Shown piece by piece: positions 30,790 to 50,388 of a stretch of 64,000 nt of DNA. The translations under genes and the position numbers were made by a program. The DNA lies in the NCBI GenBank assembly GCA_947588655.1, contig CANPYS010000004.1, positions 3,947 through 67,946 of the forward strand, written 5' to 3'. Source of the DNA: an uncultured Alphaproteobacteria bacterium. Its GTDB lineage: Bacteria > Pseudomonadota > Alphaproteobacteria > RF32 > CAG-239. The notes under the pieces are model-generated. The model ran no database searches. It worked only from the letters and a program-made list of their open reading frames with translations, and was not told the DNA's origin. Every line of letters begins with the position of its first letter. The first letter of the stretch is position 1.

Positions 30790-30792
30790 AAC

Positions 30793-32196: not shown

Positions 32197-32197
32197 A

Positions 32198-33603
32198 TTA
32201 ATTTTTAAATCTAATTCTAATTCCTAAAAATTTAATTGTTGTTTTGGTCTTATCTTTTTGAAAATCAAAAAATTTTGCTAATTTTTGTTTTCTCTTAATA
32301 ATTTTAAATTTTTGAATATAAAACTCATTTATAAGTTTGGCCGCAGATAAAAAAGAATATCTATTCATCATATCTTTAGCATTAGAAAAAGCATTATTGC
32401 GAATATTTTGAATTTGATTCACACAATACGCCCGGACTTCCTCTTCTTCTGCAGGATCAAATATGATGCCATTAACTTTGTTTTTTATAATATTTTGCAT
32501 TGTTTCGTTATGAAGAGATGTTATAACAAAACAGCCACAAGCTATAGATAAAACGGCATCTTTTTCATGAGAACATATAACAACATCATACAGGTTTAAA
32601 TTTTGGCGTAACTCATCAACGGTATGAGAAAGTTCTTTTAATTCTTCAAATTTGCCTATTTTTAATTTCTCAACTCTTTGATGCATGTAATAAAATGAAC
32701 AGGGATCGTATAAATAATCTAAAAAAGGAATTTCTTTTTTGCTTAGATCATGGGTATAGCTCCCCCCCCCATTGAAGAATTGTTTATATAAAACAAATAT
32801 TTATCAGAAAGCTGATTAACAATATTTAAAGCAATATTATATTCTTCTTGATTATTGGAGATGAGATTCACTTGTTTTTTATAGTTTTGGTAGCAATCGG
32901 AAACAAAATCAACGTAATAATATTTTTTCATTGTGTCTAATAAAGTCATTTTAAACCGCGAAATACTGTTACATTCACCAGAATCGGGTTGAATAGATAC
33001 ACCGCCCATATCATAGGTTTTGTAGCCCAATTCCTTAAATTTTAAAAAATCTTTATAATGTAGTAACCGATTTAAACGACCAATCATATTTTTAACTTCA
33101 GGCTCTAGATGTCTAAAACTTGAAATAGAACACATCATGCGAACACTTTTATTATCCGGATTAATTTGATGAGCATGGTAAATTTTATAATTTGGATAAT
33201 CAGAAGAATAAATAGAAGAAAAAACTAAAATTTTATGCTTTTTCCATAAATTAACACCTTTTTCAACACCTCCGATAACACTTCGCATAATATCAGAATC
33301 CTTATCTTCGGCGAATTCTTTGAATTTCACTAAAAATTCTTCAATCAACTTTTGATCAGGGTTTTCAATAAACTCAATTATAGGATTATCCTTTTTTATA
33401 CATTGATTTATATGGTGCTTTGCTGAGCTTTGAAAGCCTTTAAATATAACATCTTCATCTTTATCTAGATTTAAAAAAACGGTATACTGTGGTTCACATC
33501 GTGAAATACCAACCGGACAAACTAAACGTGTGTATCTAATATTTAAAGGTGTTTTTTCATCAAATAATTCAAGTTTATTGTCATCTATAATCTGCATCTT
33601 CAA
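32198..33603 (-). CDS. FemAB-like GNAT fused to GT-like C-domain, frameshifted at G9; ~468 aa if rejoined
   Basis: G10 gives ...SSMGGGSYTHDLSKKEIPFLDYLYDPCSFYY-MHQRVEK, joining ORFs 32743..33603 and 32198..32686. GYKTYDMGG and RFK motifs. Confidence 0.7.
32762..32770 (-). repeat. G9 tract, out of frame (G10 restores)
   Basis: + strand tCCCCCCCCCatt. Confidence 0.9.
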
Positions 33604-33621
33604 ACCTCCTGTTTAGATTAA

Positions 33622-34047
33622 TTAGCCTATATAGGAAAGAATAACTTTTCTATCTCTAATTGGATCAAGTTCCACCAAATAAACCGATTGCCACTTTCCT
33701 AAAATGAGTTTTCCATTTTCTACAGGTATTACTTCTGATGTGGGCAAAAATAATTGTCTCAAATGAGCATGAGCATTTATTCGCTCATTTACAGGAACAT
33801 CTCTGATTTCAATTTTATCATGCATGTAATTTCCATTTTTTGGAATTAACGTATCAAGAAAATTATTTATATCAGCAAGAAGTAAAGTTTCTCCTTCTAT
33901 AATTTTTACGGCGCAAGTTGTATGCAAGGTAAAAACATTTACAAGACCAATACCTTTTTTATTTTTAATAAAATCTTCTATTAAATCATTTAATTTTGTA
34001 AATTGTTTTTCTGTTTTAATTATTATTTCTTTCATTTCATTATGCAT
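33622..34047 (-). CDS. YjbQ/UPF0047-family protein
   Basis: VFTLHTTCA, NAHAHLR, LGKWQSVYLVELD. Confidence 0.85.
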   Translation of the reverse strand: MHNEMKEIIIKTEKQFTKLNDLIEDFIKNKKGIGLVNVFTLHTTCAVKIIEGETLLLADINNFLDTLIPKNGNYMHDKIEIRDVPVNERINAHAHLRQLFLPTSEVIPVENGKLILGKWQSVYLVELDPIRDRKVILSYIG

Positions 34048-34657
34048 GGATATACTCCCTTATATTGTCAATATTTATATCTAGATTCGCACCTTTAGGA
34101 TATTCGTTTTCAATAGCCTTTTTCACAACAATTGCAAAATCGTCAACTTTCATAAGTGAATTTGGATTTTCATTTGGATACATAGATTTTCTCATTTTAG
34201 TTAAAGTTCTTCCTGGAGAGAGGCAAATTGCATCTACACCTTCTTCTGCCCAACATTTTGTTGCCATAATAACGGCAGCTTTTGTAGCACAATACGAGCT
34301 CCAATTTGCATGTATTTTAGTTCCTGCAGATGAACCAATATTTATAATTTTTGCTTTTGGATTAATTTTTAACAATGCACCTGTACAGGCAAATACTCCT
34401 GTTAAATTTACATCTATAATATTTTTATGTTTATTTATGTTATTATTTGCTATACCATCAATTAAGATTGCACCTGCATTATTGATTAATATGTCAGGCT
34501 TTTCTTTCATCATATACGACTTTACTTTATCAATATCAGTAACGTCTAACTCTTCTTTGCTTGGCAAAAGAACTTTGTACTGTAAATTTTTCTCTAATAT
34601 TCTAGCAATAGCTTTGGCTATATCTCCATTGCCACCAGTAATTAACACCTTTATCAT
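34040..34657 (-). CDS. Short-chain dehydrogenase/reductase
   Basis: ITGGNGDIA, LINNAG, YCATK. Confidence 0.9.
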   Translation of the reverse strand: MIKVLITGGNGDIAKAIARILEKNLQYKVLLPSKEELDVTDIDKVKSYMMKEKPDILINNAGAILIDGIANNNINKHKNIIDVNLTGVFACTGALLKINPKAKIINIGSSAGTKIHANWSSYCATKAAVIMATKCWAEEGVDAICLSPGRTLTKMRKSMYPNENPNSLMKVDDFAIVVKKAIENEYPKGANLDINIDNIREYIHA

Positions 34658-35274
34658 ATTATATTATCCTCTATCATTTTATAAATGTTTTCTATAACTG
34701 GTAAATCTTTTTTATAAGTCAATTTTACCAAGTTTTCTCCACCTAAAAAAAACTCAGGTTTAATCCCATAGGTTTCATACATTAATCGTGTTTCATCAGT
34801 CATATCCCAATCAATATTCTTATTATAAGCATCATAAAGTAGTTGAAAATCAAAACATTGTGGCGTTAGTAAATCGTAATATTCATTTCTGTTACAATAA
34901 GTACCATCACGTTTAATTATTGTATTTACAAGTGGCATAATATATGTAGATGACTTTTGGGTATTTTTAAGCAAAAATTCAATTTGTTCAGTACGAACTA
35001 GAGGTCTTGCCACCTCCAAAATAATTACTTTTTTATAATCTCTATTTTTTATTTTAAAATAGTTAAGTCCATTTATAACGGAATAAGAACGAGTTTTACC
35101 CCCTTCTACATCAACGCCAACGACTACAATGTTTTCTTTTGGCAAAATTTTTAAAGCTTTATCATAAACGTGCTCCCATAATGCTTTTCCCATAAATTTT
35201 ATGAATTGTTTTTTTTCTTGAAATCTAGTACCTTTACCCCCCCCCAAGATAACAGCTATATTATTTTCCATCAA
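34654..35274 (-). CDS. IspD/TarI-family cytidylyltransferase, G9 in frame
   Basis: ILGGGKGTRF, KQF, GGKTRSYSV, EVARPL, TPQCF, MTDET, KLTYKKDL. Confidence 0.85.
   Translation of the reverse strand: MMENNIAVILGGGKGTRFQEKKQFIKFMGKALWEHVYDKALKILPKENIVVVGVDVEGGKTRSYSVINGLNYFKIKNRDYKKVIILEVARPLVRTEQIEFLLKNTQKSSTYIMPLVNTIIKRDGTYCNRNEYYDLLTPQCFDFQLLYDAYNKNIDWDMTDETRLMYETYGIKPEFFLGGENLVKLTYKKDLPVIENIYKMIEDNII
35237..35245 (-). repeat. G9 tract, in frame (LGGGK)
   Basis: tttaCCCCCCCCCaag. Confidence 0.9.
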
Positions 35275-36681
35275 TCAACTCTCCATTCAAATATTTTATA
35301 ATTGTTTTTGATGCATGAGGATAATTATATTTGACAAAACTGTAGCGGAATTTGTCCCGTTTTTCTTTCAAGATATCATTACCCTTTAACACAACATTTT
35401 CTATGTAATTAATGATATCTTTTTCATTATAAGCCTTATAATAACAATCTAAACAACCCTTACCAAAAGTTCCAAAATACTCATTAATTACCTTTTTATC
35501 TCTTAGTGAATAACAAGCCGGATTTTCTGTATAAAGATACTCCGGTAAAAATGACCCACAGTCATGAATGATGCCGTCTGAATCCACAAAAGTTTGATAA
35601 TAGTTTGAACTTGTATCATAGACACAGTTTTCAAAAGAATCCATTTTCTGATAATATTCTTTTGTTTTTTCCTCACCCCAATATTTATCTTGAATAAGTG
35701 TATAATATAAAAGTGGATGTGGTCTAAATATAAAATCAATTTGAGGATATTTCTGAGGCAACGACAAATACAAATCGCTAAACTTTAAAAATTGCCCTTG
35801 CAAACCTATTCCATGGATTGAATGATGTGGAGCAATAATAACTTTTTTACGTTTGTGCTTTGTTTTAACTAAGCCCTCAAAAGCATCGGCCTTAGGATAA
35901 CCAGAAACAAAAGCATTTTTTCCATGAATAGGTTGTCTTTCTTTTAAATCTTCTAAATTTAATTCATTTTCCACAAAAGCAATCCAACACATATTATAAG
36001 TGTCTGAAAGGATGGACTTATCTTTTGCAGAAGAATAAGCATAACTAACATAACAAGCCAAGACGCCTTGACGAATTATATTATATATTTTGTAGGGTTT
36101 ATATTCTATATTTTCATCATTTGAGGGAACAAAAACGATGTCAAAACACTTGTTATAATCCGCAATTTTAATACCCCCCCCATAGTAATTTTTTCAAGTC
36201 CTTGATAAACTTTTATTTTATGCGCATATTTTTCCAAAACTGCTTGTAAGGTTTTATGATATAACTCAATTTCCTTTTCCGGAGTGTGTACCAAGCTTGG
36301 AACGACAACAACCGACACTTCAAAACTTGGATTCGCAATCATTTTTAACAATACCGCTTCAGCCGTCCAAGATTCCAAAGCGTGCATAATAAACCCAACT
36401 CTTATCTTTTGACCATTTTTAACTTTCGTTCTCAGTCTATTAAGAATTTTTGGATAAGTTTTTTGTATTTTTTCATAATCAGAAACACTAAAATACATCT
36501 TAAAATTGCCGGCAAAGAACAATTTCCATTTTAGTGGCATAATCAAGCTTAAAAGATACAAACACCTATCGCAAAGCTTTTCATAACCACAATATAATTT
36601 TTTGCGAGCCGTTTTTCTCCACGAACTTTTCGGAATAAAACAGCATAAAATTTTTATAATATATTTCATCACATTTACCAC
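35261..36681 (-). CDS. CDP-glycerol/alditol glycerophosphotransferase (TagF-like), frameshifted at G8; ~473 aa if rejoined
   Basis: G9 gives ...EKITMGGGIKIADYNKCFDIVFVP...RQGVLACYVSYAY, joining ORFs 36106..36681 and 35261..36061. SGYPKAD, IAPHHS, FRPHPLL, DCGSFLPEYL motifs. Confidence 0.8.
36174..36181 (-). repeat. G8 tract, out of frame (G9 restores)
   Basis: ataCCCCCCCCatag. Confidence 0.9.
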
Positions 36682-36689
36682 AGTTTCAG

Positions 36690-37541
36690 TTACTCAACAG
36701 GTCTTCTGCATATACAAATTTGAAAATGGCTTGCAAAAAACGGAAAAGCCTTTGCAAATCGCAGCAAATACCCCCCCCCGCGAGATTTAAAGAACTCAAT
36801 AGCTTTAGGTTCTTCCCAAATAAGTTTTCTTTTATTTTTACGGTTAAAAGCTTCTCTAAGGCCAAGTTCATCTTCTCCGGCGACATGAGACAAAACTTCA
36901 AACCCAGCTTTTTCCAATTCTTTTCTAAATTGTTTTGTTGACAAATGATATTCAAAAAAATCACCATCTAAAAACCTTGGCCAATATTTAAACTTCATAT
37001 GATTTTTTTCTTCATATTTTCTTTTTTCTTCTGCAACACCTTTATGAAAAATCTGCTGATAAAGTTTTTTGAATTTACGCGTTGTATTTAAGCATGGGAC
37101 AGAAATTAAAGCATATCCACCCGGACGAGTAGCATCAAACATAGCTTTAATTGGTTTATCTAAGCCATCAATAAAATGTTCTACAACACCTAAGCTTAAA
37201 ACAACATCATTATTTTTAAGCTCCGGAGGCAAATTTGTTATTGAACCATGCGTAAATGAATATTCTGGATATTTTTTATGAAGAACTTTAACTATATCGT
37301 TATTTATTTCTACGCCTTTAATACCATCAAAGCCTAACCTATTAAACAAAATGACAACGCAACCATTACCGCTACCGGCTTCTAATATTTTAGGTTGACG
37401 CCCCAACTCCAATTTTGCCCGATGGGCAAGTTTTATGCCCTCAATGGTTTCTTCCACCATCAACTTGCCATAAACGAATGTTGAAATTTCTTCTTCATTC
37501 CATTTAAAAACGTAACTTTCGCCTTCCATTTTTCCCTCCAT
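36690..37541 (-). CDS. Class I SAM-dependent methyltransferase, G9 in frame near 3' end
   Basis: ILEAGSGNG, DVVLSLGVVEHF, RPGGYALISVP. Confidence 0.88.
   Translation of the reverse strand: MEGKMEGESYVFKWNEEEISTFVYGKLMVEETIEGIKLAHRAKLELGRQPKILEAGSGNGCVVILFNRLGFDGIKGVEINNDIVKVLHKKYPEYSFTHGSITNLPPELKNNDVVLSLGVVEHFIDGLDKPIKAMFDATRPGGYALISVPCLNTTRKFKKLYQQIFHKGVAEEKRKYEEKNHMKFKYWPRFLDGDFFEYHLSTKQFRKELEKAGFEVLSHVAGEDELGLREAFNRKNKRKLIWEEPKAIEFFKSRGGGYLLRFAKAFPFFASHFQICICRRPVE
36771..36779 (-). repeat. G9 tract, in frame (RGGGY)
   Basis: aataCCCCCCCCCgcg. Confidence 0.9.
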
Positions 37542-37547
37542 AAATAA

Positions 37548-38261
37548 TCAAATTTTTTGAACAACGGCTGTAATTAAAATCGGATAACTTTCTACATCAT
37601 CGGCAAATTTCTCACACACATTTCTGTTGATATTGATTAATCTGCAGATAACAGAGCCAATCCCCCCCCCGTAGGTTTTTAAGGACAAGGTCTTGAATTT
37701 ATCTTTAAGCCGCTCAAAGCATTTTTTTAGTCCCGATTGGCTCAATGATAACATAAAGGGTCCATCTTTCATCTGAGGACCATATGAATCGGTTGAGACA
37801 AGCATCACCCCATCCGGCTTAAGCAATTTCTGCATATTTGATAAAACCAAAAGCGGATCAAGCGTATAAACCAAACATTGCGTAAAGATAATACAATCAA
37901 AGCTGGCCTTAGGGAAGGTGTTAATATCTTCAAAATCAAAGAAAAATTTAATATTATCCTCTGGCTTATAGTTGTGTTTAAACTTTAAACCAGCGCAATA
38001 TGTAACATTTTCTTGAGGGACATACTTTTCGGCATAATTTTCTGTGCCTCTAAATTCTAGAACCTGCCCCTTAATATATTTCCGATTATCTTCAATAAAT
38101 TTTTCAATATAAATTCTATCTGGCGATTCCTTAACCTTCAAAACCGGATTATACCTTTGGATTTTTTTAAATTCAGAGTACTGCTGATTTATATATTTCT
38201 CACACCAGTTAAGATTTTTATAAAATAGCCTTGCCTTGAGTTTTCTAATAAGCCTGACCAT
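37548..38261 (-). CDS. Class I SAM-dependent methyltransferase, G9 in frame
   Basis: GQVLEF, FDCIIFTQCL, LLKPDGVML. Confidence 0.75.
   Translation of the reverse strand: MVRLIRKLKARLFYKNLNWCEKYINQQYSEFKKIQRYNPVLKVKESPDRIYIEKFIEDNRKYIKGQVLEFRGTENYAEKYVPQENVTYCAGLKFKHNYKPEDNIKFFFDFEDINTFPKASFDCIIFTQCLVYTLDPLLVLSNMQKLLKPDGVMLVSTDSYGPQMKDGPFMLSLSQSGLKKCFERLKDKFKTLSLKTYGGGIGSVICRLININRNVCEKFADDVESYPILITAVVQKI
37662..37670 (-). repeat. G9 tract, in frame (YGGGI)
   Basis: aatCCCCCCCCCgta. Confidence 0.9.
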
Positions 38262-39951
38262 ACTTAAGCTCCTTATAAGTTAATAGAAAATTTCTTGCAG
38301 AATACATTTGGTAAACTTCTGCATATTTTGTTTGAACAAATCCCATCACTTGCATACTGCGATATTCATTTAAGGCCTTAGTCCACCGATCATAATCCCA
38401 ACCATCGCCAATTTGAGATTTATACATTTTCAAAACATCAATCTTCTCGTCTATGACATCTTCAATATCCAGCATACAATTTGGCGATTCCATTGGCGTC
38501 CAAACCTCGTACATCACAATTTTTGCATCTCGTTTAAGATGTTGTTTTTTAGCCATACGTACAAAAACATTGCTTGTAGCGTATTGATGCTCTGGATGAT
38601 GATCTCTAATGTATGGAACAAATATATAATCATACTCCTTAAGGTTGACGGCTTGCAAATAATCTTGCATATGTGAATCTATGCGCTTAAACATAGGCGG
38701 AATATCGTAACCTTCATAAATAAAATGCTTCCTAACGCCAAGCCTTTTCATCACTTTTTCAAACTCAGATATGCGTACATCGCTTCTTTCTTTGGCGGTA
38801 AGCTCACGCGTTGCAACACCTGCTGAATTGAGGCACAGAACGTCAAAATTATGTGCATTTTTCAACAAAAGCCCACCAAGGCCAATAATTTCATCATCTG
38901 GGTGCGGGCAAATGCAAAGACATCTGTCTTCTTTTTTTAAAGAAATATAAGAAAATTCTACAGGTTTATTCCTAATTTTTTTATAAACCATCAAGCCACA
39001 AATTTTATATTTTTTTACGACATAATCACAATATCTGATTCTCTTTCTTTTGTAGAAAAAATTTTTAACCGTTTTTATAAATTTGCGAGCTTTAGTTTTG
39101 GAAAGCCAACTTTTTGCCTTTTTTTCAAAAACAGTACCTTTTGTATAATTATAAAATATTTGCTTCACTTTCGGTAAGGCAATTTCTGAAGACGGCTTTG
39201 CACCGCCTGCCAATTGCCAAATAACAGGGTGTTCCAAGGCTTCAAGTATCATCTGATCTGGAAAAATACCTTTATACGTTTTCAAAAAGTTTTCTTTTGT
39301 TAATCGTTCACCAAAACCTGGATTAATTGAATATCTGGGCGGCAATTCTTTATATTTATTACCATCACAAACCAAATTCAAAACATCCATATCTTGCCAA
39401 TGAAGAATTTTCCCCTTTGCTTTGGCAAGGTTGCGAAATTGTTCAAATTTTTGCTCATCAATATACTTTTCAACATCTACCAACATTAAGCCTGCATAGG
39501 TATATTTATGATTTTTCTTTAATCCAAGTTTTGGAATAAATTCTCTTTCTTCATCACCCCAGCCACACGGAACCAGGCCTAAAGAATTTCCTTCTAAATC
39601 AGTATTATAAAGTTCTGAAAGCGATTCTCGAACAATAATGTCACAATCCGAAAATAAATATTTTCTAATTCCTTTTTTATGCATATAAAGAGGAATATTA
39701 AACCGGTAGTAAGTTATCCTTTCATAAGGAAAATCTATCAATTCACTATGTTTGTCAATTTTCACAAATTCAATATCAAAGCTGTATTTTTCTTTAAGTT
39801 TTAAAATTTCTTTTTTAGATTTATCGGACAAATCCGGACTAAACACAAAAAAACTTAACTTATCGTCCTTATTTTTCGTATCAAGGGTTGAGGCTATTGC
39901 AACATACAAATATATGGCATAATTTTCATCACCAACCAAGGCTATATTCAT
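38245..39951 (-). CDS. GT8 glycosyltransferase fused to PIG-L-family deacetylase
   Basis: N-terminal DENYAIYL...YYRF...DCDIIV...DMDVLN; C-terminal CPHPDDEIIGLGG...DHHPEH...YEVW. Confidence 0.85.
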   Translation of the reverse strand: MNIALVGDENYAIYLYVAIASTLDTKNKDDKLSFFVFSPDLSDKSKKEILKLKEKYSFDIEFVKIDKHSELIDFPYERITYYRFNIPLYMHKKGIRKYLFSDCDIIVRESLSELYNTDLEGNSLGLVPCGWGDEEREFIPKLGLKKNHKYTYAGLMLVDVEKYIDEQKFEQFRNLAKAKGKILHWQDMDVLNLVCDGNKYKELPPRYSINPGFGERLTKENFLKTYKGIFPDQMILEALEHPVIWQLAGGAKPSSEIALPKVKQIFYNYTKGTVFEKKAKSWLSKTKARKFIKTVKNFFYKRKRIRYCDYVVKKYKICGLMVYKKIRNKPVEFSYISLKKEDRCLCICPHPDDEIIGLGGLLLKNAHNFDVLCLNSAGVATRELTAKERSDVRISEFEKVMKRLGVRKHFIYEGYDIPPMFKRIDSHMQDYLQAVNLKEYDYIFVPYIRDHHPEHQYATSNVFVRMAKKQHLKRDAKIVMYEVWTPMESPNCMLDIEDVIDEKIDVLKMYKSQIGDGWDYDRWTKALNEYRSMQVMGFVQTKYAEVYQMYSARNFLLTYKELKYGQAY

Positions 39952-40077
39952 TTATAAGTCTCCTAAAGTTTGACTATTAGTTTTTCAAACAGAACCGAAA
40001 ATTATCAGCATATTTAGTCATCCCCAAAATGCCCTTTTATCCACAGAAACCAAAACTTTCCACGCATTTCCCGGTAC

Positions 40078-40188
40078 TTGCAAAAAAACGTACCTTTTTT
40101 TTCAATATTTTTTAAGTTTTCAACAGCTTGAATTCTCTTGAGTTTTTTTCTTGATTTATTATGAAAAAAAAGGTACGTTTTTTTGCAA
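40078..40188. promoter_or_regulatory. Inverted-repeat-flanked promoter, candidate invertible element 2
   Basis: 27-bp perfect IR (40078-40104 / 40162-40188) with 57-bp spacer; TTGATT (40151-40156) lies 17 bp from TACGTT (40174-40179); sits between divergent genes. Confidence 0.6.
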
Positions 40189-40207
40189 CATTGCAGGAGA
40201 AAACTGA

Positions 40208-42098
40208 ATGAATAATCTGAAACCAACCGACAAAATAAAACTTGTAATTTTTGATTTAGATGAAACATTTTGGAACGGTGTTTTAAGCTCTGAAGAAAGT
40301 ATTCAGCCAAAACCCTCTGCCATCAAGCTTGTTAAAACCTTGGTAGATAATGGCATTATGTGTTCAATTTCTTCAAAAAACGACTTTGAAACGGCTAAAA
40401 AGAAATTGATTGAACTCAAAGTTTGGGATAATTTTATCTTTCCTAGTATCAACTGGAACCCCAAAGGCGCACAAATTGCGAAGCTCATTAAAGATGCTCA
40501 TTTACGCGATGAAAATGTGCTTTTTATAGACGATAATCCTTCTAACTTGGCTGAAGCTCAATATTATTGCCCAAGTATTAAAATTGCTACGCCGGATATT
40601 TTTGAAAATATGCTTAAACTGCCTGCAATCCAAGGGGGGGGGGAAGAACGACAAAGATCATACACGCTTAAAGCAGTATAAAATTCTTGAAACAAAACAG
40701 GCAGAAGCCCAAAAATATAATGATAATACCGAATTTTTAAAAGCATCTCAAATCAAAGTAACTTTTTCTGATGTTTCAGATGATAAAATTGAACGAACGA
40801 TAGAACTCATTTTAAGAACAAATCAACTTAATTTTACCAAAAAAAGAATTGATAATACAAAGTTAAAATCTTTACTCAAAAATCAAAATTATGAAAATAA
40901 ATTGATAAACGTTAGCGATAAATATGGCGATTACGGTATTTGTGGCTATTATTGCCTGAATAAAAAAAACAAGACCTTAGAACATTTTATTTTTTCATGC
41001 CGCATTATGAACTTAAAGGTTGAGCAATTTATTTATGCCAAATTAAATTTTCCAAAAATAAAAATTGTTGAACCCGTATCAACCCAATTAAATAATTATG
41101 AACGACCTGATTTTATTAATAAAGATTACAACCTAAAAACAAAGAACAACAAAAAGATAAAAACAAAAGTTTTGCTCTTGGGAAACTGTGATATGCAGTC
41201 AATTTCACATTATGCGACAGGAACGGCAAATAATATAGAGGTAGATTTTTATGTTGATATTAATCCCGAAACACACATGCAAATCCGATATGACAGTGTA
41301 TGGAAAATGAAAAATGCGCTCTCTCTTTCTGATAAACAAAAAGATTCTCTTATAAAAACACACAAGTGGATTTGTGCAAAATCGTTTGAAAATAGGGCAT
41401 TTAAAGACAATTATGATATATTAGCCTTTTCAGTTTTAAATGACTATATGGTGCCAACATATCAGGATAAGCTATCACATATTATACTGACACCAACGAC
41501 GAGCTATAAATATAATATATTTACGGCACCTGTAGATATCATTTTAAAATTATTCAAAGAAAATAATATTATTAATTTTTCTAAATCTGATGTCCTAAAG
41601 ATGCAAAGAAATTTAATAAATGAGCGGTTTATGACAGAAAAAGAGTTTGAAAAAAACTTAAATTGGTTAGTTGAGCATGTTCATAAGCCCATCATATTTC
41701 TTAATGGACCGGAAGTTTTAAGACCAAATGATGATGTTGCATGCTATAAAAGATTTGTAAAATATAACAAAATCTTAGATAAATTTGTTAACACGCATGA
41801 AAATTGCTTTCTTGTTGATGTTAGAAAATATGTTAAAGAGCCTTCAGATACAACCGATGTCGTGACGCACTACCACAGAGAAACATACATCAAACTAGCT
41901 GAAGATTTGCTCACAATTATAAATAACAATCACAATAAGGTAAAATACTTACTTAAAATTAAGTTAATGAAACTTAAATTAGCTGGGTATATCAAGAATA
42001 TTTCCAAATTACGCAAAAAAATATGCCAGTTCAGATTTGGACATAAAGAAAAATACCTGATTTTATTCGGTAAAACAATATTTAAAGCAGATAAATAA
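40208..42098 (+). CDS. FkbH-like HAD-IIIC protein with GNAT domain, frameshifted at G10; ~629 aa if rejoined
   Basis: FDLDETFWNG, SISSKND, INWNPK, FIDDNP, RTNQLNF, DKYGDYG, SCRIM. G9 gives PAIQGGGKNDKDHTRLKQYK. Confidence 0.88.
40634..40643 (+). repeat. G10 tract, out of frame (G9 restores)
   Basis: caaGGGGGGGGGGaag. Confidence 0.9.
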
Positions 42099-42109
42099 GT
42101 AAAAAATAT

Positions 42110-43375
42110 TTATTTTAAAATACTTTTTAAACTTTGCGCTGTTTTTTTAAAAGTATATTTTTTAAGAATATCACGATTATTTCTTGCAGTCTGTGCTTGA
42201 AGTTCCCGCCATATAATTGATGCCAGTTCTTTAACAGAACAATCCGTAGGAACTGAAACCCCTGCTTTTTTATAATAAGGCTCAAATAAATTTTCTGCCG
42301 CAATAAAATTCTTATTTAAGGTTACAAGTTCTGAAATACATCCTGAACCTTCTCCTATTGAAAATTTACGAAGTTGTACAGATAAATCCATTGAATACAT
42401 GTATGATAACAACTTATCATAACTAGCATTTTCTATGATACGCACATTTGTTAAGTCAAACTTAGACACATAATCTTTTACAGAAAGCCCTACTAACCAT
42501 AATACAACCTTATTTCCTTGTAAATTTAAAAGATTCACTGCATTTATAATTTTATCCGTTTGTTTCATATCTGAAGCAATGCCAAAAGATCCCACATTAT
42601 AAGCCTTATTTTCAAAAATAATTTTCTGTGGCAAAGGAGAAATTTCATCAAAGCCCATTGGTAAAAGAGAAACTTTAACTTCTTTTTCAAAGCAGGATCC
42701 TTTTAAATCCTTTAACAATAAGTCTCTTCCTGTTTTTCTATATACAATAAAGTGCTTAATACCAGTTAAACCAACCAAAACACGTATACCACAAATATAT
42801 TCTTTCTGCAAAGTTCCTAAAAAATCTGAATATAAATCATTTTCTTGAATATCATGTTTTTCAGGATAATATTTTTGAATCATATCAATGAAATTAATAT
42901 GATTTTTTTGACACCACGACACAAGCAAGCCACATATTTGTGTTTCACATAAAGAAATATACCTTTGCGGCAACCCTTTTGTTTTAATACCATATTCTAA
43001 ATAAGGGACATGAAAACCAGAATTACCTAAATTTAAAATGCTATATTTGTAATTTCTTTTCATTTTTTCAAAAAAGAATAACGGTACAATATGATTGTTA
43101 TATTTTATATCAACACATTCTAAAGTTTTAATATAATTGTCTTGCGTATAAATTTCAGAAACAAAATCAAGCTCTTCAAGCAAAGATGAATATGTTTTAA
43201 TGGCATATAATCCTGTACCTGTCGGAGCTGGTGGTAAAGGTGTAAAAAAGCCTATTTTATACTCAATGTTCTGAAAAAATATATTATTTCTTTTAAGAAA
43301 TTTACAAAGCTTTAATTTATTTTTAAATACAATTAAACTTTTAATAACTTTTTTTGCATCTTTTTTTAAGCCCAT
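42110..43375 (-). CDS. GT-B (GT4-like) glycosyltransferase
   Basis: FFTPLPPAPTGTGLY, LNLGNSGFH, GSFGI...KQ, VQLR...GEGSG. Confidence 0.7.
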   Translation of the reverse strand: MGLKKDAKKVIKSLIVFKNKLKLCKFLKRNNIFFQNIEYKIGFFTPLPPAPTGTGLYAIKTYSSLLEELDFVSEIYTQDNYIKTLECVDIKYNNHIVPLFFFEKMKRNYKYSILNLGNSGFHVPYLEYGIKTKGLPQRYISLCETQICGLLVSWCQKNHINFIDMIQKYYPEKHDIQENDLYSDFLGTLQKEYICGIRVLVGLTGIKHFIVYRKTGRDLLLKDLKGSCFEKEVKVSLLPMGFDEISPLPQKIIFENKAYNVGSFGIASDMKQTDKIINAVNLLNLQGNKVVLWLVGLSVKDYVSKFDLTNVRIIENASYDKLLSYMYSMDLSVQLRKFSIGEGSGCISELVTLNKNFIAAENLFEPYYKKAGVSVPTDCSVKELASIIWRELQAQTARNNRDILKKYTFKKTAQSLKSILK

Positions 43376-43436
43376 AACAACATCTCCTGTTGTTTGGTTG
43401 CTGAAAAAATGCTCCCAAAAACAATATGCAAAAACA

Positions 43437-43465
43437 CCCTAAAATTTATTTTATAAATTTTAGGG
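43437..43465. terminator. 13-bp-stem AT-rich hairpin (terminator or operator)
   Basis: ccctaaaatttat-ttt-ataaattttaggg in an intergenic gap. Confidence 0.4.
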
Positions 43466-43517
43466 CTTAAATTAAGATGATAACAGAGATGACAAGCTTT
43501 ACCTGCCGCGGAAAATA

Positions 43518-44783
43518 CTAATAGGGGGGGGTAATCAGTTGATCATTATGAACATATTGTTCAAAAACCTTCATATAAGCATCAGCTGTTTCTCTTGTAT
43601 CATGAACCTTTCCAAATGCCTCTAAAGAAACTTTGGCATTATTTTCTGCCAATTTCGGATCATCTAACAAACGAAGCATAGCCGCGGCGATATCTTCAGA
43701 ATTTTTAGGATTACAAAACTCTGTCTTTACGCCCAAAGTTTCAACCTGCTCTCTATATGATGGAATATCAGAGATCACAGTTGGCACACCAAGTGACCAA
43801 GCATCCAAACCCGAGCCACAACCCGCTTCACACAACGAAACATTGAGCACTATTTTAGCTTTGAGCAATAAAACATTCAGTTCATCATCAGAAACAAGGC
43901 CCAAACTTTTTATATCATAATCTTCACCTTCCCCAACATGATCAGCATAAAAAGGAGTATTCATTTGTACGCAAATTCCTTCTGTTCCATAACCGACAAT
44001 AATCATCTTTAGTGTAGGATATTTTTGTTTAACCAAATAATATGCCGTTAAAGCTTCCTCCATATTTTTATGGTGCATATTATTTGTTGCTAATAAAACA
44101 TAATCGTAAAAAATGCCATATTTTTTCAAAACATCATTACATTTTATTTCATCTAATTGACCCATATTACTTTCTGTAATTACCTGAATTTTATGAATTT
44201 TTCCTGCATAACCCGGATAAGTTTTTCTCAATTCCTCCGCAATATAATTTGATGTCACACACGGGACATATCCATAATCCAAAAATTCAGCAATATCTTT
44301 CTTAGTCTTTTCAAAAAAATCACGATTATAATTATTTCCACAATGCAAACCGAAAAAGTGTGTAAAAATGAAATCATGTGGTATAAAAAAACACTTAGTA
44401 CCAAAATTAAATGCTTTTGACCCGAAGCACCATGCATCAAAAACAGCATCATTTGATGAAATTTTTTTAATTAATTTTTTAGAAATAAAATATCCATTAA
44501 TTCTTCTAATCCAGTACATAAAACTATCAATAAGCCCGATATTTGTAATTCTTTTCTTTTTAGGCTTAAATAAACCTTCACAATCAACCAACTGTAAACC
44601 CATAGAAGAAAATCTAGCTAATGTATCACGGGGCAATGTCCCACTTGACTTATAAAAAACCTTAATTTCCGTTTTGGGATAATATTTCTTTATTGAGCCG
44701 AAAACACTACCAACCCATCGCCAAGAACCAACGGAACCATTACAATGAAGCACTGCAATTTTCATCAATTTTACTCCATACAA
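43518..44783 (-). CDS. GT4 glycosyltransferase
   Basis: HDFIF, ATNNMHHKN, SLCEAGCGSGLDAWSLGVPTVISDIP. Confidence 0.8.
   Translation of the reverse strand: MYGVKLMKIAVLHCNGSVGSWRWVGSVFGSIKKYYPKTEIKVFYKSSGTLPRDTLARFSSMGLQLVDCEGLFKPKKKRITNIGLIDSFMYWIRRINGYFISKKLIKKISSNDAVFDAWCFGSKAFNFGTKCFFIPHDFIFTHFFGLHCGNNYNRDFFEKTKKDIAEFLDYGYVPCVTSNYIAEELRKTYPGYAGKIHKIQVITESNMGQLDEIKCNDVLKKYGIFYDYVLLATNNMHHKNMEEALTAYYLVKQKYPTLKMIIVGYGTEGICVQMNTPFYADHVGEGEDYDIKSLGLVSDDELNVLLLKAKIVLNVSLCEAGCGSGLDAWSLGVPTVISDIPSYREQVETLGVKTEFCNPKNSEDIAAAMLRLLDDPKLAENNAKVSLEAFGKVHDTRETADAYMKVFEQYVHNDQLITPPY
43524..43531 (-). repeat. C8 (sense) tract in last codons of GT4
   Basis: + strand ataGGGGGGGGtaat; encodes TPP just before the stop. 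Confidence 0.8.
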
Positions 44784-44855
44784 AAAGCATTATTAGCAAT
44801 AATGTATTGGATTGCAATCAATTTGTACACAAATTTTTAACCAATATTCACACGC

Positions 44856-45477
44856 TTATTTGATTTTACGCACGGGGACGCCCACATAAACGCCTGACTC
44901 TTCCACATTGTTAATAACAACCCCTCCTGAGCCAATGGTAACATTTGCACAAATACTAACGCTATCTTTAATTGTTACACCTGCACCAACAAACGCATCA
45001 TGACCAATCATTGTTCTTCCGCATACTGTAGAATTAGGAGCAAGATGACAAAACTCCCCTATTTTAACCTCATGTTCAACAACAGCGTTTGTATTAATAA
45101 TACTGCCCTTCCCCACATGGACAAAGGGTCCAATGTAAGCTCCATCACCAATAAAGCAACCACTTTCTATTACAGCATTTTTAAATACATTGGCTCTAGC
45201 AGATATAACAGAAACAAGTTTTTTCTTAGAAGAAATCTGACGCCTTTTAGCATTATCACCAATCGCCACAAATATATTTTGAGCATCTTGAGGAAGTGTT
45301 CTAACGACCGGAAAATTAAAAATTCGCTCATTATCTTGAGCATTTTCATCTACAAATATAATTTTTGCATCAGGAAAGTTTTGCAACACAACAGAAGCGA
45401 CACTTCGGGCATGGCCTCCACAACCAATAATAATTAATTTACCCCCCCCCGAAATTAAAATTTATTTTGTTTTCCAT
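44856..45477 (-). CDS. NeuD/PglD-family acetyltransferase, frameshifted at G9; ~206 aa if rejoined
   Basis: AGGAG RBS; ATG at 45477 reads MENKINFNFGGG-stop. G8 gives FGGGKLIIIGCGGHARSV..., continuing into hexapeptide repeats (INTNAVVEHEV). Confidence 0.88.
45442..45450 (-). repeat. G9 tract, out of frame (G8/G11 restores)
   Basis: tttaCCCCCCCCCgaa. Confidence 0.9.
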
Positions 45478-45527
45478 CAAAAACTCCTAAAATCAAGACA
45501 TTAAAACATTTTTAAGCAACCATAATG

Positions 45528-45556
45528 AATTTACAATTCAACTAGAATAAAGTCAA
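45528..45556 (-). promoter_or_regulatory. Possible internal sigma70 promoter
   Basis: Minus strand TTGACT-17 bp-TAAATT upstream of ATG 45477. Confidence 0.4.
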
Positions 45557-45567
45557 TCTTTTTTAAC

Positions 45568-46746
45568 TCAAAATGCCCTTATAATTCTTGACAATTCTCT
45601 CAGAAGGTCATGGCCGTCCCAAACAATATCAATATTCATCGCCTGTCCAACCGGAACAATCCGATCAATACCGCGGACATGGCAAGCCATAAACTTTGAG
45701 CGCAATGCCTGAGCATCAACGCCAAAATATGTTAATGTCTGATATTTTTCCGTCATCACATCAACAAGTTCTGAAATATCTTTAAGGGCATATTCATAGA
45801 AAAAGCCACCCTTACCCCGATGAAAAACAATTTCAGGATTAAGGCTTTTCAACTCTGCCCGATACAACAAATTATCATACCGTGCAATTTGTAAAATATT
45901 TTCATTTGAAATACTTTCTTCGCACAATAAAGTATATTTATCAACAGCAACGGCGTCTTGCAGAGAATATTTTTGCATTGCCACGTCATAAACCGCATGC
46001 CAGAAAATTTCTCTTGCTTTTGGGTTATCATTTTCCCATAAAATCAGCTGTGGCGAAGAGCAAGCATTTTGATCCATCAAATATGTATCATTATAAAAGT
46101 TTTCAGCCAATTTTTTGAGCTCTGTCGCTGAGGCGGCAAGAACAGACTTAGCAGAAATCAGCGCCAACGAATATCTATCCGCAAAGCTAACATCCACGCA
46201 ATGCGGCAATGCCGGCATAGCCTTAACCAGCGCAATCGTTTCATCGCCGCCCCAAATCATACGGACATCGGCCTTTTTAGAAAACGCTGCCGTTATCTCA
46301 TTATCGCGCGGATAACGCACAAATGCCGTTCGTTTCCCAATTTCCGGATATTTTGCAACAACTTTTTTGAATACTTCGCAAAAAGTATCAATTTGCGGGA
46401 AGAGCTTACTCGGAAGCCGAACAATATTAGCATTGCCGGCAAGCAATGAAAACAGATAAGAAAACGCAAAATTAATCGGGATATTTGACGGAGCAATATG
46501 AAAGCACAACCCACGTCCGATACGTTCATTTATATCTGAATAAAGGTTTTTCATCTTTTGCAAATTCGCCTTTCTGCTCCAAAATGCCAAAGCCGACAAA
46601 TCAGACATTGTGCGGAGCATGGGGGGGGGTAATTGAAGCAAAGCAGAAGACAATTCGGACACAAAAGCACAAACATTTTCATCAAATGGTTGCATGGGCG
46701 AAGAGTCAATGTTTTCAGAGCCAAAAATAAAATTAACGTTTTTCAT
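45568..46746 (-). CDS. LuxC-like acyl-CoA reductase, C9 in frame
   Basis: GRGLCFHIAPSNIPINF, LLAGNANIVRLPS, WGGDET, DQNACSSPQ; start MKNVN overlaps the luxE-like stop. Confidence 0.88.
   Translation of the reverse strand: MKNVNFIFGSENIDSSPMQPFDENVCAFVSELSSALLQLPPPMLRTMSDLSALAFWSRKANLQKMKNLYSDINERIGRGLCFHIAPSNIPINFAFSYLFSLLAGNANIVRLPSKLFPQIDTFCEVFKKVVAKYPEIGKRTAFVRYPRDNEITAAFSKKADVRMIWGGDETIALVKAMPALPHCVDVSFADRYSLALISAKSVLAASATELKKLAENFYNDTYLMDQNACSSPQLILWENDNPKAREIFWHAVYDVAMQKYSLQDAVAVDKYTLLCEESISNENILQIARYDNLLYRAELKSLNPEIVFHRGKGGFFYEYALKDISELVDVMTEKYQTLTYFGVDAQALRSKFMACHVRGIDRIVPVGQAMNIDIVWDGHDLLRELSRIIRAF
46621..46629 (-). repeat. C9 (sense) tract, in frame (LPPPM)
   Basis: + strand catGGGGGGGGGtaa. 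Confidence 0.9.
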
Positions 46747-47809
46747 AGGTATCACTACACCCCCTGATTTCTGCATTTTTAATCCGTCCAAAAATCTTAA
46801 AATACTTTCCTTTTCTGCCGCAAGGACAATCATCAACACCCAACACAGCACCTTCATCTTCGGTTAAAATAAGATGCCCTGGGTAACTTGTCGGCAAAAC
46901 GGAAGCCACCTCAATAAGCCCCCTTTCGCCAATCGCCGCCTCAGAAAAATCTTTGGAACGACGGATAATGACATCGGAATAATTAGAGCAATGCATATGC
47001 CCGTGCTCACATTCCACAAAAACCGAGCCAAGTTGTTCAACCATGCCGTAATAGTTATAAACTTTCACATTGCCCAAAACACCTTGCACTCGTCGATTAA
47101 ACTCTAAAGCGTCAACAGCCTGATCTTTTAATTTTTTCCAGCCACCAATATGAAACAACACAGCGTTTTGAGCATTAAATTTAAGGCCTTTTTCTTCCAA
47201 AACACGCACAATAAACTGCCAAATCATATATGTGTAGCCAAACATTAAAACCGGCTCATTGTGGTATTTTTCAAAAAATTGCACCACTTTATCAACATCA
47301 ATATTCATCTCATTATCAAGCGCATAAGTACTGTCACGCCCGAAAATAGAAAATCCGATAATCCCCGCGCCCCTTGCCGAGTACATTGTGCGATCTTTTT
47401 TAATGAGTTCTGTATCAAGCAAAAGTAACGGCAGACGCTGTTTCCCGATAAAAGAGGAAACAATTTCATTTAAGGTTTTCGTCTGATTTTTCACATTATT
47501 TGCATCTAAAAAAATCTTGGAAACCGCCTGTCCTGATGTACCTGAAGACGTCAGCGTTTTAACAATTTTTTCCTTTTCCACCGAGCGAAGTTCATAATTT
47601 TTAAACAATCTGGCGGGAATAAACGGCAAATCAGAAACAGATTTAATTTTTGAGGGTTGAAAACAAAGTTTATCTAAAATTTTTTTATATTCCGGACATT
47701 TTTCATAATGATAACAAGTTAAATCAAGCAGATTATCTTTAAGCGCTTTTTCTTTTGCCTGACAATCTAAGCTATACGGATTTAAATTAAAAAATTCTTC
47801 AAGTGTCAT
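46733..47809 (-). CDS. LuxE-like acyl-protein synthetase
   Basis: LTSSGTSG, GGWK, YYGMVE, YPGHLILTEDEG, CPCGRKG...GRIKNAEIRGCS. Confidence 0.9.
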   Translation of the reverse strand: MTLEEFFNLNPYSLDCQAKEKALKDNLLDLTCYHYEKCPEYKKILDKLCFQPSKIKSVSDLPFIPARLFKNYELRSVEKEKIVKTLTSSGTSGQAVSKIFLDANNVKNQTKTLNEIVSSFIGKQRLPLLLLDTELIKKDRTMYSARGAGIIGFSIFGRDSTYALDNEMNIDVDKVVQFFEKYHNEPVLMFGYTYMIWQFIVRVLEEKGLKFNAQNAVLFHIGGWKKLKDQAVDALEFNRRVQGVLGNVKVYNYYGMVEQLGSVFVECEHGHMHCSNYSDVIIRRSKDFSEAAIGERGLIEVASVLPTSYPGHLILTEDEGAVLGVDDCPCGRKGKYFKIFGRIKNAEIRGCSDTYEKR

Positions 47810-47885
47810 AAGTTACCTCTTTTAAAAAGATGTCTTTAATTCCTAGAACAAAAGCTTATAGGCAATATTTAAAATTTCATCAAAA

Positions 47886-49292
47886 CTAAGCATACATTTT
47901 TTCCAATTCCTGATAAAGCGTTTTACCGGCGCTATTTTTCGGCAACGCATCAACACCAATCACGGCAAACGCCGTTTGGTTCAACCCTGTTTTTTCGGCC
48001 AAAAAATTTCGGATTTCGGCACATTTTTCTTTTTCGGTAATATAAACATGCATTTCATCATCATGACCAGCGCAAGCACATTCCATATCGTTATAGCGCG
48101 ATTTGATCAGCCTTTCCGTTTCATCCAGCCCAACACGATTCCCAAAAATTTTCAAAAACCGTTTCTTGCGTCCGACAATCGTATAAAAGCCATCGGCATC
48201 AAACTTTGCCATATCGCCTGTCAGTAAGCGACCGTTATTTTCATCGCCTTTAGCCAAATCTTCCCCGCAAAGTGCATAGCCCATGGTCACATTTTCGCCT
48301 TCATAAACCAATTCGCCAACCGTTTCCGGCGTATGAATTTCTTGACCGTTTTCATCAACGAGCATAAATTTGCCACCCGGAATGGCTTTGCCCATACAGC
48401 CCCATTTTTCAAGCGAAATTTCAGGCGGGAGATAACCCATACGCGCCGTTGCTTCCGCCGAACCATACATCACCACAAACGCTTTTCCTTGTTCTTTGGC
48501 ATACTCGGCAAATTTCTTGTGCAATTCGGGCAAGAGTTTTCCGCCCGCCTGCGTCAGCGTATGCAAATACGGCAAATTGCGCCTAAAAAACATTAGCTTA
48601 TTAAGCATTTCATAAGTATAAGGCACACCGCTGAAAGAGGTGGCTTCATATTTGTTCATAAAATTCCAAAAATCGCGTTGCATAATGGTTTTATCAGTTA
48701 AAAGCAACGTTGCGCCAACCGCCAAATGCGTATTGATAACCGACAACCCAAACGTGTAATTCATCGGCAACACAGTAATGGGACGTTCTGCCGAGTTTAA
48801 GTGCAAATAGCTCACAATCGCCTCTAGATTGCTCTCAATATTGCGGTAACTTTGGCGCACAAACTTCGGACTTCCCGTAGAGCCCGAAGTCGTTAGCAAA
48901 AGAGCCAAATCAGGATGAAGCGGATAAACTCTTTCATTGGCCGTTTTCAAAAGATGATACCCCCAACTTGAAAAAACAACCTCCCCTTTCGCTTTTTTAG
49001 CTAAATCCGCCGGAAGCCAAAGGTAATCAGGCTGATACTGCTCCAAAAACCTTTTGAGCAAGGTTTCATCAATATGCGCATCAAGCATCAACGGTACAAT
49101 TTTGTTTTGCAAAAATGTGGTATAACCGACAAGCGAACCTAACGTATTCCGACACAAGCAAAACACCAAACAACGATGCGGAATATGTTTGGCAAGCTCT
49201 TGTGTATAGGCTAGAAGTTCGGCATAAGTCGTTTGTTGACCGTTGTCATCAATGACGGCCAAGTGATAAGGATATTTCTCAAAATTCCACAT
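47886..49292 (-). CDS. AMP-binding adenylation / acyl-ACP ligase
   Basis: LLTTSGSTGSPK, YGSAEA, TGDMAKFDADG...GRKKR. Confidence 0.9.
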   Translation of the reverse strand: MWNFEKYPYHLAVIDDNGQQTTYAELLAYTQELAKHIPHRCLVFCLCRNTLGSLVGYTTFLQNKIVPLMLDAHIDETLLKRFLEQYQPDYLWLPADLAKKAKGEVVFSSWGYHLLKTANERVYPLHPDLALLLTTSGSTGSPKFVRQSYRNIESNLEAIVSYLHLNSAERPITVLPMNYTFGLSVINTHLAVGATLLLTDKTIMQRDFWNFMNKYEATSFSGVPYTYEMLNKLMFFRRNLPYLHTLTQAGGKLLPELHKKFAEYAKEQGKAFVVMYGSAEATARMGYLPPEISLEKWGCMGKAIPGGKFMLVDENGQEIHTPETVGELVYEGENVTMGYALCGEDLAKGDENNGRLLTGDMAKFDADGFYTIVGRKKRFLKIFGNRVGLDETERLIKSRYNDMECACAGHDDEMHVYITEKEKCAEIRNFLAEKTGLNQTAFAVIGVDALPKNSAGKTLYQELEKMYA

Positions 49293-49515
49293 TATATTTC
49301 TTCAGAATTTCCTTACCTTTTTCAAAGCTTGACAAGTCCACAATATCATCAGGTTCCATCATAATGTCAAAAGCTTCTTCTAATTGTGCAATCAAACCCA
49401 TATGACCAACGGAATCCCACGCCGGAATAGCTTGAAATTCAAGTGTTTTAGCCTTATCTGTATCAATTTCAAAAGCCTGCACAAAAGCGTTTATATATTT
49501 TTCTTCATTTGTCAT
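49279..49515 (-). CDS. Acyl carrier protein
   Basis: WDSVGHMGL phosphopantetheine motif; acidic, 78 aa. Confidence 0.9.
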   Translation of the reverse strand: MTNEEKYINAFVQAFEIDTDKAKTLEFQAIPAWDSVGHMGLIAQLEEAFDIMMEPDDIVDLSSFEKGKEILKKYNVEF

Positions 49516-49534
49516 TTATTTTCTCCATATTCAC

Positions 49535-50275
49535 TCAGTTACGGCCGCCATCAACACGAATAACCTGACCTGTAACATATTCAGATTCGTCTGAAGCCAA
49601 AAATAATGCAACTTTTGCCACATCTTCAGGCATGCCCAACCTTTTCAAACACACCTTAGATTTTTCAGCACAGAGCACTTCAGGCTTCATATTCCTGATT
49701 AACGACGTTTCCGTGACTCCTGGAGCAATACAATTTGCCCTTATACCAAACGATCCCAACTCTTTAGCCAAAGACTTTGTTACCGTTATCAAAGCCGCTT
49801 TTGTCGCGCCGTAAACAGACTGCCCTTCCATGCCTTCCAAGGCACTGATAGAAGATATGTTTATAATACTGCCTTCTTTTTGGCGTACCATCAGTTTACT
49901 AACCAACTGCATAAGATAAAACGGTGCCAAAAAATTGATGTTAAACATTTTTTGAACATCGTCCATCAAAGTCATTTGTACCAAAGATTCCTTAAATATA
50001 CCAGCATTATTTACTAAAATGTGAATAATTTTTTGAGTTTTTATTAATGCTTGAAATTCAAGTTTGATATTCTCATAATTTGCCATATCAAAATAAGCCG
50101 GACGGATATCAACACCATATTTTTCGGCAGTTTCTTTCAAAAACGCAACAAATTCAGGCGTTTCTTTGCGTGCATGTGCAATGATATTTGCCCCATTTTT
50201 AGCAAATTCTTCCACAATCGCCTTCCCGATTCCCCGATTCGTTCCAGTGATAAATGCAGTCTTCCCTTTAAGCAT
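49535..50275 (-). CDS. SDR, FabG-like (paralog 1)
   Basis: TGTNRGIG, NNAG, YGATK, IRVDGG. Confidence 0.92.
   Translation of the reverse strand: MLKGKTAFITGTNRGIGKAIVEEFAKNGANIIAHARKETPEFVAFLKETAEKYGVDIRPAYFDMANYENIKLEFQALIKTQKIIHILVNNAGIFKESLVQMTLMDDVQKMFNINFLAPFYLMQLVSKLMVRQKEGSIINISSISALEGMEGQSVYGATKAALITVTKSLAKELGSFGIRANCIAPGVTETSLIRNMKPEVLCAEKSKVCLKRLGMPEDVAKVALFLASDESEYVTGQVIRVDGGRN
50085..50275. repeat. 191-bp identical direct repeat, copy 1
   Basis: Base-for-base match to 52783-52973 (5' end of both SDR paralogs). Confidence 0.95.
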
Positions 50276-50332
50276 GGAGAACCTCCCGACGAACTGAACT
50301 TATTTTATGAAATTTCGGGTTGTTTAAAACAC

Positions 50333-50368: not shown

Positions 50369-50388
50369 CTTGCTTTAATCTTATAAGG

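Follow-up and report, generated by a model that had tools for sequence, protein, structure and literature searches.

A paired-palindrome promoter cassette at a divergent junction of an alphaproteobacterial polysaccharide locus, a candidate minimal inverton

In a polysaccharide locus of an uncultured gut alphaproteobacterium, a long and perfect inverted repeat separates two divergent transcription units, which raises the question of whether the DNA between its arms is an invertible promoter that can serve either side. The window, by which we mean the whole 64-kb stretch of DNA that was analysed, carries the housekeeping genes pyrH-frr-uppS-cdsA-rseP-bamA-lpxD-fabZ and topA, followed by the large polysaccharide locus. 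The PyrH protein of the organism finds its best matches, at 66–73% identity, in rumen and other uncultured alphaproteobacterial MAGs. An earlier note, made from the letters of this DNA, had proposed a perfect 27-bp repeat with a 57-bp spacer at a divergent junction, and the sequence agrees on both counts. The two arms (40078–40104 and 40162–40188, with no strand assigned) are complementary at 27/27 nt and enclose a 57-nt spacer (40105–40161), so that the whole unit, here called element 2, measures 111 bp (40078–40188). Of the two flanking genes, the minus-strand one starts at 39951 and the plus-strand one at 40208.

The 27-mer of the arm, TTGCAAAAAAACGTACCTTTTTTTTCA, is present at these two places in the window and nowhere else in it, against 0 occurrences expected from 100 shuffles. 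No perfect short-range inverted repeat in the AT-rich 16 kb from 30001 to 46000 is longer, and when this region was resampled 60 times under a first-order Markov model, the longest one reached 10–15 nt at most. A perfect repeat of 27 nt is far beyond chance. Each arm is also a quasi-palindrome centred on GTAC, and it contains a 26-bp site with a 12-2-12 layout around a central TA. In the left arm this site is TGCAAAAAAACG-TA-CCTTTTTTTTCA (40079–40104, central TA at 40091–40092; 25.9 bits in the PWM scan described below) and in the right arm it is TGAAAAAAAAGG-TA-CGTTTTTTTGCA (40162–40187, central TA at 40174–40175). The earlier note had seen the GTAC-centred symmetry and had likened the arms to recombinase crossover sites; the sequence confirms the former, and the 26-bp layout with its TA centre bears out the latter.

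The spacer and the right arm together make up a candidate promoter. A −35-like hexamer, TTGATT (40151–40156, plus strand), is preceded by C and separated by 17 nt (40157–40173) from a −10-like hexamer, TACGTT (40174–40179, plus strand), which lies within the right arm. Transcription is predicted to start at about 40186–40188, upstream of AGGAG (40195–40199) and of the ATG at 40208, so the coordinates proposed for a TTGATT-N17-TACGTT promoter directed at the FkbH-like gene hold. In the left arm, a mirror TACGTT (40087–40092, minus strand) faces the minus-strand block, with TTAAAA (plus-strand positions 40110–40115) as the hexamer 17 nt further upstream. This −35 had been called poor. Its position stands but the verdict needs qualifying, because the left side is poor only through the missing G of TTAAAA, and by hexamer count the match to TTGACA is 4/6. 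Element 2 therefore has a single −35 box inside the spacer, near its right end, with the minus-strand TTAAAA near its left end, and a −10 hexamer in each arm. When the spacer was flipped in silico, TTGATT came to lie exactly 17 nt from the left-arm TACGTT; the spacing is kept because the outer half-sites that give CGTT are identical in both arms. TACGTT agrees with the −10 consensus at 3/6 positions, and a generic sigma-70 scan did not call TTGATT-N17-TACGTT, which matches at 7/12 consensus positions. Two other promoter readings were rejected: a sigma-54 promoter (GG-N11-GC) has its spacing off by one and is not conserved in a related element (L133, below), and inward-facing TTGCAA-N17-TTCAAT promoters are not conserved in the other elements.

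Either strand across the repeat folds into a 27-bp stem (−44 and −41 kcal/mol, z-scores of about −8), as would be expected if the element acted as an RNA hairpin, for instance a processing site or an attenuator, in a transcript crossing both arms. We regard this as very improbable. Any repeat of this kind would fold trivially, RNA from the conserved promoter would begin at the outer edge of the arm and lack the stem, and the divergent junction offers no upstream gene on the same strand for readthrough. Rfam returned only chance miRNA-hairpin matches, far below threshold.

On the right of element 2 lies an FkbH-domain/HAD-IIIC gene (40208–42098, plus strand), present as two ORFs that are split by a G10 tract at 40634–40643. 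The tract puts the gene out of frame in this assembly, and with one G removed it encodes a protein of 629 aa, whose score against TIGR01686 is 166 bits (cutoff 146.65). On the left, 126 bp from the arm, the minus-strand block begins with a gene for a GT8 and PIG-L deacetylase-domain protein (38245–39951, minus strand), whose homologues are found within operons, without a comparable junction. The rest of the block comprises two methyltransferases, an IspD-like cytidylyltransferase, an SDR, a UPF0047 protein and several unknowns. Its extent, 39951 to 32198, is as the earlier note gave it, but its eight genes become about ten ORFs. The stretch 29167–32196 encodes an AlgX-like SGNH protein paired with an MBOAT protein (polysaccharide O-acetylation), and a G10 tract (29355–29364) lies near the 5′ end of the first of these two genes. 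Elsewhere in the polysaccharide locus, an unusual block at 45568–57378 encodes a LuxC/LuxE-like acyl-protein synthetase and reductase, an AMP-binding enzyme, two KAS III-like enzymes, four SDRs, a split transketolase and a glyoxalase-fold protein, a content that suggests an acylated or otherwise unusual sugar modification.

The proposal that element 2 is layered on poly-G switches is upheld by the G10 tract of the FkbH-domain gene, and such tracts are common in its surroundings. There are 19 poly-G/C tracts of at least 8 nt in the window (8–11 nt), against about 0.5 8-mer matches expected by chance. Eighteen fall within 29355–60655 and one at 505–512; nearly all are inside genes of the polysaccharide locus, mostly as G-runs on the coding strand. 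One poly-C tract (37661–37670) varies between the samples that were compared for the orientation of element 2 (below), with C9 in the window and C10 in L002, and these assemblies can therefore reveal a phase change when the majority state shifts. With 19 tracts, one of them variable between samples, this organism clearly invests in phase variation; as a set of contingency loci in an alphaproteobacterium, the tracts recall those of Campylobacter.

Element 2 is not alone. The core of its sites, CAAAAAAACGTAC, is found at four places in the window that make up two inverted pairs; the first pair belongs to element 2 and the second to element 1 (16491–16600), where the sites at 16491–16516 and 16575–16600 have their centres 84 bp apart. 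Elements 1 and 2 also have the outer half-site TGCAAAAAAACG-TA in common. Pattern scans and look-ups anchored on proteins added further copies from related gut Alphaproteobacteria: in a related MAG (L133), upstream of a PMP-repeat autotransporter gene; in L157, upstream of a gene for a signal-peptide protein; and in L267–L271, with the core GGTACC, where rbfA lies on one side and a paralogue (74% identity) of the secreted protein encoded beside element 1 on the other. One locus, L208, has a solitary site. Across the family, the sites are 26 bp long and follow the 12-2-12 design, with the half-site nGCAWWWWAASG and a central TA, and the outer half of each site contributes the −10 hexamer (TA+CGTT). 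Site centres lie 83 bp apart in element 2, 84 bp in element 1, 85 bp in L267–L271, 73 bp in L133 and 129 bp in L157. Given the solitary site of L208 and the 129-bp spacing of L157, the geometry of the element is not universal.

The family was delimited by several scans. A PWM built from 18 half-sites and applied at a threshold of 14 bits to about 430 kb, made up of the window and of loci chosen independently of the pattern, gave sites of at least 14 bits only within these elements. In the same sequence, 26-bp sites always formed inverted pairs where both ends were assembled; the sole unpaired match (L272) is cut by the contig end and starts inside an arm like that of element 1. A two-arm pattern scan of representative genomes gave no match with 13+13 nt, and with 10+10 nt it returned L133 as a true relative, one look-alike (L135/L138) and otherwise unrelated sequences. 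The two-arm scan of JGI metagenomes produced 21 matches, mostly long terminator-like hairpins or otherwise unrelated, and 0 relatives. A scan with a single arm gave at least 116 matches, mostly chance ones in AT-rich Bacteroidota; only three had a partner arm, all of them short hairpins, and the alphaproteobacterial L157 and L208 were the informative cases. The look-alike belongs to a Bacteroidales MAG and consists of paired palindromes, AAAAACGTACGTTTTT, at 1007–1116 of L135 and 2073–2183 of L138, with centres 94–95 bp apart and spacers that are near reverse complements of one another. The L138 copy lies between convergent genes, one of which encodes a T9SS adhesin, and may be a different kind of element. 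L135 and L138 could be related to the alphaproteobacterial elements or independent of them.

The genes next to the elements all concern surface structures, namely the polysaccharide locus for element 2, the PMP-repeat autotransporter for L133 and signal-peptide proteins for element 1, L267 and L157. Within an element, the arms match at 27/27 nt in element 2, at 81% over 43 nt in element 1, at 87% over 31 nt in L267 and at 92% over 24 nt in L157. They are alike beyond the shared core inside one element and unlike between elements; the comparison of elements 1 and 2 thus bears out the remark of the earlier note that arms are symmetric within a locus but different from one element to the other. 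The interiors are unrelated apart from the −35/−10 geometry. This geometry, CTTGAYW-N17-TAC(G/C)TT, is present on exactly one arm in elements 2 and 1, L133 and L267 (4/4 aligned). As the chance of TTGA at that exact position is about 0.006 per arm, its occurrence in all four is more than chance and shows the promoter to be real despite the weak −10. This supports a real promoter set within a recombination-like architecture. Judged by these comparisons, element 2 is one copy of a small, compact family of promoter cassettes in gut Alphaproteobacteria, and such paired-palindrome promoter cassettes are a previously undescribed family.

The direction of the promoter differs between copies. It is directed at a surface gene in element 2 (leader of about 20 nt) and in L133 (about 28 nt), and away from the adjacent secreted-protein gene in element 1 and L267. 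In element 1, TTGACA (16564–16569), N17 and TACGTT (16587–16592) point away from the gene at 14979–16151 (minus strand) and into non-coding DNA that has no plausible ORF. In L267, the promoter runs directly into the bidirectional terminator hairpin of rbfA. A good promoter that faces away in this manner, in L267 into a terminator, while its mirror site faces a secreted-protein gene, looks like the OFF state of an inverton. The gene beside element 1 encodes a protein of 390 aa that carries a signal peptide and matches no Pfam or NCBIfam entry; it belongs to a family of ~400-aa proteins with 45 metagenome homologues, and some shorter homologues with partial coverage carry PF07603. Element 1 is surrounded by dense REP-like palindromes at 16220–16480 and 16640–16770, among whose units are GTCATGCTGAACTTGTTTCAGCATGAC and CATTCTGAGGCGGTTTACCGCCGAAGAATC, and short-read contigs of other samples (L257–L266, L273) all stop in or near them. 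Contigs reached through the neighbouring proteins of element 1 break in these repeats before the element.

We consider it quite possible, at slightly less than an even chance, that element 2 is a tiny invertible promoter flipped by a recombinase whose gene lies elsewhere. In favour of this count the perfect repeat, the pairing of the sites, the promoter on one arm and its varying direction, the likeness of the arms within each element, the similarity of the site layout to hix, gix and cix, the surface role of the neighbouring genes and the organism's use of contingency loci. The chief competitor is a fixed promoter with two operator palindromes bound by a dimeric regulator and no inversion, which we think somewhat unlikely. 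In such an arrangement, a regulator on the site over the −10 would repress the CTTGAYW-N17-TACGTT promoter, and the second site, about 8 helical turns upstream, would stabilise a loop or control the opposite, divergent promoter. Every site is indeed a palindrome of the dimer type, the right sites of L267 and L157 are perfect 26-bp palindromes, and the centre spacings of 83, 84, 85 and 73 bp correspond to about 8 and 7 turns of 10.5 bp, although the 129 bp of L157 is out of helical phase. Both arms of element 2 face genes, as they would in co-regulated divergent operons; however, the distal site of L133, element 1 and L267 is turned towards the 3′ end of an unrelated gene, and the only good promoter of element 1 and L267 leads away from the sole adjacent gene start. 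The lone site of L208, the single orientation in all assemblies and the lack of a recombinase gene nearby are each in keeping with operators, but no regulator gene was seen adjoining any element. The arms of a pair are, moreover, identical beyond the core that a protein would contact, which is not normal for operators.

The elements might, alternatively, be static relics, that is, repeats of the REP/MITE type or corrected quasi-palindromes in which the outward promoter is incidental and the symmetry stems from their origin. The genome is full of REP-like palindromes next to element 1, and element 1 is itself nearly palindromic over its whole length, as its 43-nt arms at 81% reflect. In strains with identical fabZ (L112, L113), the intergenic region is different and element 1 is absent. 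Template switching can turn quasi-palindromes perfect, which also counts for this explanation. We nevertheless find it improbable, as no target-site duplication is present at the flanks of element 1 or element 2, and plasmid and phage collections gave no match to the element. The interiors resemble each other only in the −35/−10 geometry, in contrast to MITE copies, and with only two elements in 64 kb the elements do not qualify as MITE or REP repeats. Sites, spacing and promoter are kept across a pair of 74%-identical paralogues at different chromosomal loci, which argues for selection and against a relic.

A switch could also operate without inversion, and here the composition of element 2 is relevant. 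An A8 homopolymer (40164–40171, plus strand) lies within the 17-nt promoter spacer, and its slippage could alter the −35/−10 spacing in an organism that uses homopolymer slippage widely; slippage of the A7/T8 runs in the arms could do the same, and methylation of the two GTAC/CGTACG palindromes might set a heritable on/off state. Homopolymers in promoter spacers are known from Mycoplasma hyorhinis vlp (poly-A) and Neisseria porA (poly-G), and element 2 resembles these systems both in its A8 tract between −35 and −10 and in belonging to an organism rich in slippage tracts. It differs from them in that the promoter spacers of its sister elements (element 1, L133 and L267) are free of long homopolymers and in that no length variation was seen, the A8 tract and the other A and T runs having the same length in all assemblies. 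For methylation, the two identical palindromic tetranucleotides about 84 bp apart in a divergent region recall the GATC pair of pap, where methylation of two GATC sites sets a heritable on/off state, but we know of no GTAC-specific methyltransferase here. Slippage or methylation at element 2 is, in our view, distinctly improbable as the basis of a switch.

Returning to inversion, the proposed switch would act as follows. A recombinase from elsewhere in the genome would cross over at the central TA (or GTAC) and flip the intervening segment. The CTTGATT −35 would thereby move from the right-hand −10, where it would serve the FkbH-domain gene with its leader of about 20 nt, to the left-hand −10, where it would serve the GT8/methyltransferase/cytidylyltransferase block with a leader of about 128 nt; the weak TTAAAA box would move the opposite way. 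An inverted element 2 would join CCCGGTAC plus the arm to TAATAAATCAAG. In the assembled state, the promoter faces the FkbH-domain gene, itself independently off via its G10 tract. The central TA is palindromic and therefore gives no directionality. What the sequence itself establishes is the repeat, the layout of its sites, the promoter conserved on one arm and the existence of a family; that recombination takes place at all, by whichever enzyme, and that the minus-strand block depends on element 2 for its transcription is our inference. The 'either/or' control of the FkbH-domain gene and the minus-strand block, as the earlier note had it, is a conjecture. As pure speculation, one enzyme acting between elements 1 and 2 could invert 23.6 kb, including fabZ to topA.

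Orientation was compared between assemblies. Element 2 was inverted in 0/4 other contigs, from at least three other samples, and the L267 element in 0/5 contigs, counts that come from consensus assemblies at 3–7x coverage, which show the majority state only. All four contigs with element 2 (three ENA assemblies and one Logan assembly, the latter perhaps from the same run as one of the ENA assemblies) assemble straight through the element, in the same orientation and at 100% identity. No recombinase domain was found in the ORFs scanned or read in the 64-kb window, nor was one found beside L133, L157 or L267. Recombinases encoded at a distance from their sites are known. The 83–85 bp between site centres (a 57-nt spacer in element 2) is less than in any characterised inverton known to us. 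As a tentative generalisation, which we regard as possible rather than probable, gut Alphaproteobacteria may carry 'minimal invertons' of ~84 bp in which the sites give both −10s, only the −35 moves and a distant recombinase acts, all on top of poly-G loci.

If element 2 and its relatives do invert, they would lower the known size limit of site-specific inversion, and they would do so by a sparing design in which the −35 box alone changes sides. Promoter inversion by a distant recombinase, best known from Bacteroides, would then extend to an uncultured gut alphaproteobacterial lineage, and promoter inversion would be combined with Campylobacter-like poly-G switching in one polysaccharide locus. 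If there is no flipping, the elements still amount to a conserved module of promoter and palindromes, by which a surface-structure regulon can be recognised in these little-known gut bacteria.

Element 2 has two general features of an inverton. Inverted repeats flank a short intergenic segment, and the direction of the promoter would depend on the orientation of that segment, as the in-silico flip and the shared geometry of four elements predict. Among the invertases, Hin acts on a segment of ~1 kb and depends on a 65-bp Fis enhancer that lies ~100 bp from a hix site (PMC3798978), and the hix, gix and cix sites have been tabulated as being of the type TTCnnnnAAACC-AA-GGTTTnnnnGAA, with AA or GA at the centre (PMC3241671). 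Element 2 is like this Din family (Hin/hix, Gin/gix, Cin/cix) in its 26-bp 12-2-12 sites, with an A/T tract and then C/G beside the central dinucleotide, and in having two inverted sites that bracket a promoter, which in the Din systems controls surface antigens. Its outer half-site TGCAAAAAAACG agrees with the Din half-site TTCnnnnAAACC at 6/8 specified positions; the inner halves fit less well. It differs in its palindromic TA centre in place of AA or GA, in a 57-bp spacer that cannot hold a Hin-type 65-bp Fis enhancer, in the absence of an adjoining invertase gene and in a −10 that lies inside the site itself. The Din-type combination of an enhancer within a segment of at least 1 kb and an adjacent invertase is thus absent from element 2.

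DNA-looping operators offer a comparison for a fixed promoter; lac O1–O3 are ~92 bp apart and gal OE–OI ~113 bp apart. Like these, element 2 combines a palindromic site over the core promoter with a second one at a distance of about 8 helical turns. Unlike element 2, however, the lac and gal operators are ~16–21 bp long and not perfect copies over 27 bp, a regulator gene is usually nearby, and the promoter always faces its gene.

The systems with distant recombinases are those of Bacteroides and Mycoplasma. In Bacteroides fragilis, many promoters of polysaccharide and surface loci are under the control of a single recombinase that flips them and whose gene lies elsewhere (PMC4747536). The elements described here resemble this Mpi system in that their repeats are perfect within a locus (element 2) and have a short core in common between loci. 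The Mpi repeats are reported to share the core ARACGTWCGT (Coyne 2003, Patrick 2003). The left arm of element 1, AAACGTACGT, matches this reported core exactly and element 2 does so with one mismatch; a search of the literature, for the core as a string as well as for the Mpi consensus, turned up nothing usable. The invertible segments of Mpi in Bacteroides are ~170–200 bp long, contain a whole TAnnTTTG promoter and have UpxY/UpxZ downstream. Element 2 departs from the Mpi type in size, promoter type and downstream genes, being an 83-bp unit in an alphaproteobacterium with a sigma-70-type promoter of which only the −35 is inside. The mpl invertible promoters of Mycoplasma penetrans, in turn, are ~135 bp long, have 12-bp repeats and are flipped by tyrosine recombinases. 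They are ~50% longer than element 2 and hold the whole promoter between the repeats, but the likeness is close in other respects: tiny promoter-only invertons in many copies, placed before surface protein genes and served by a recombinase encoded elsewhere.
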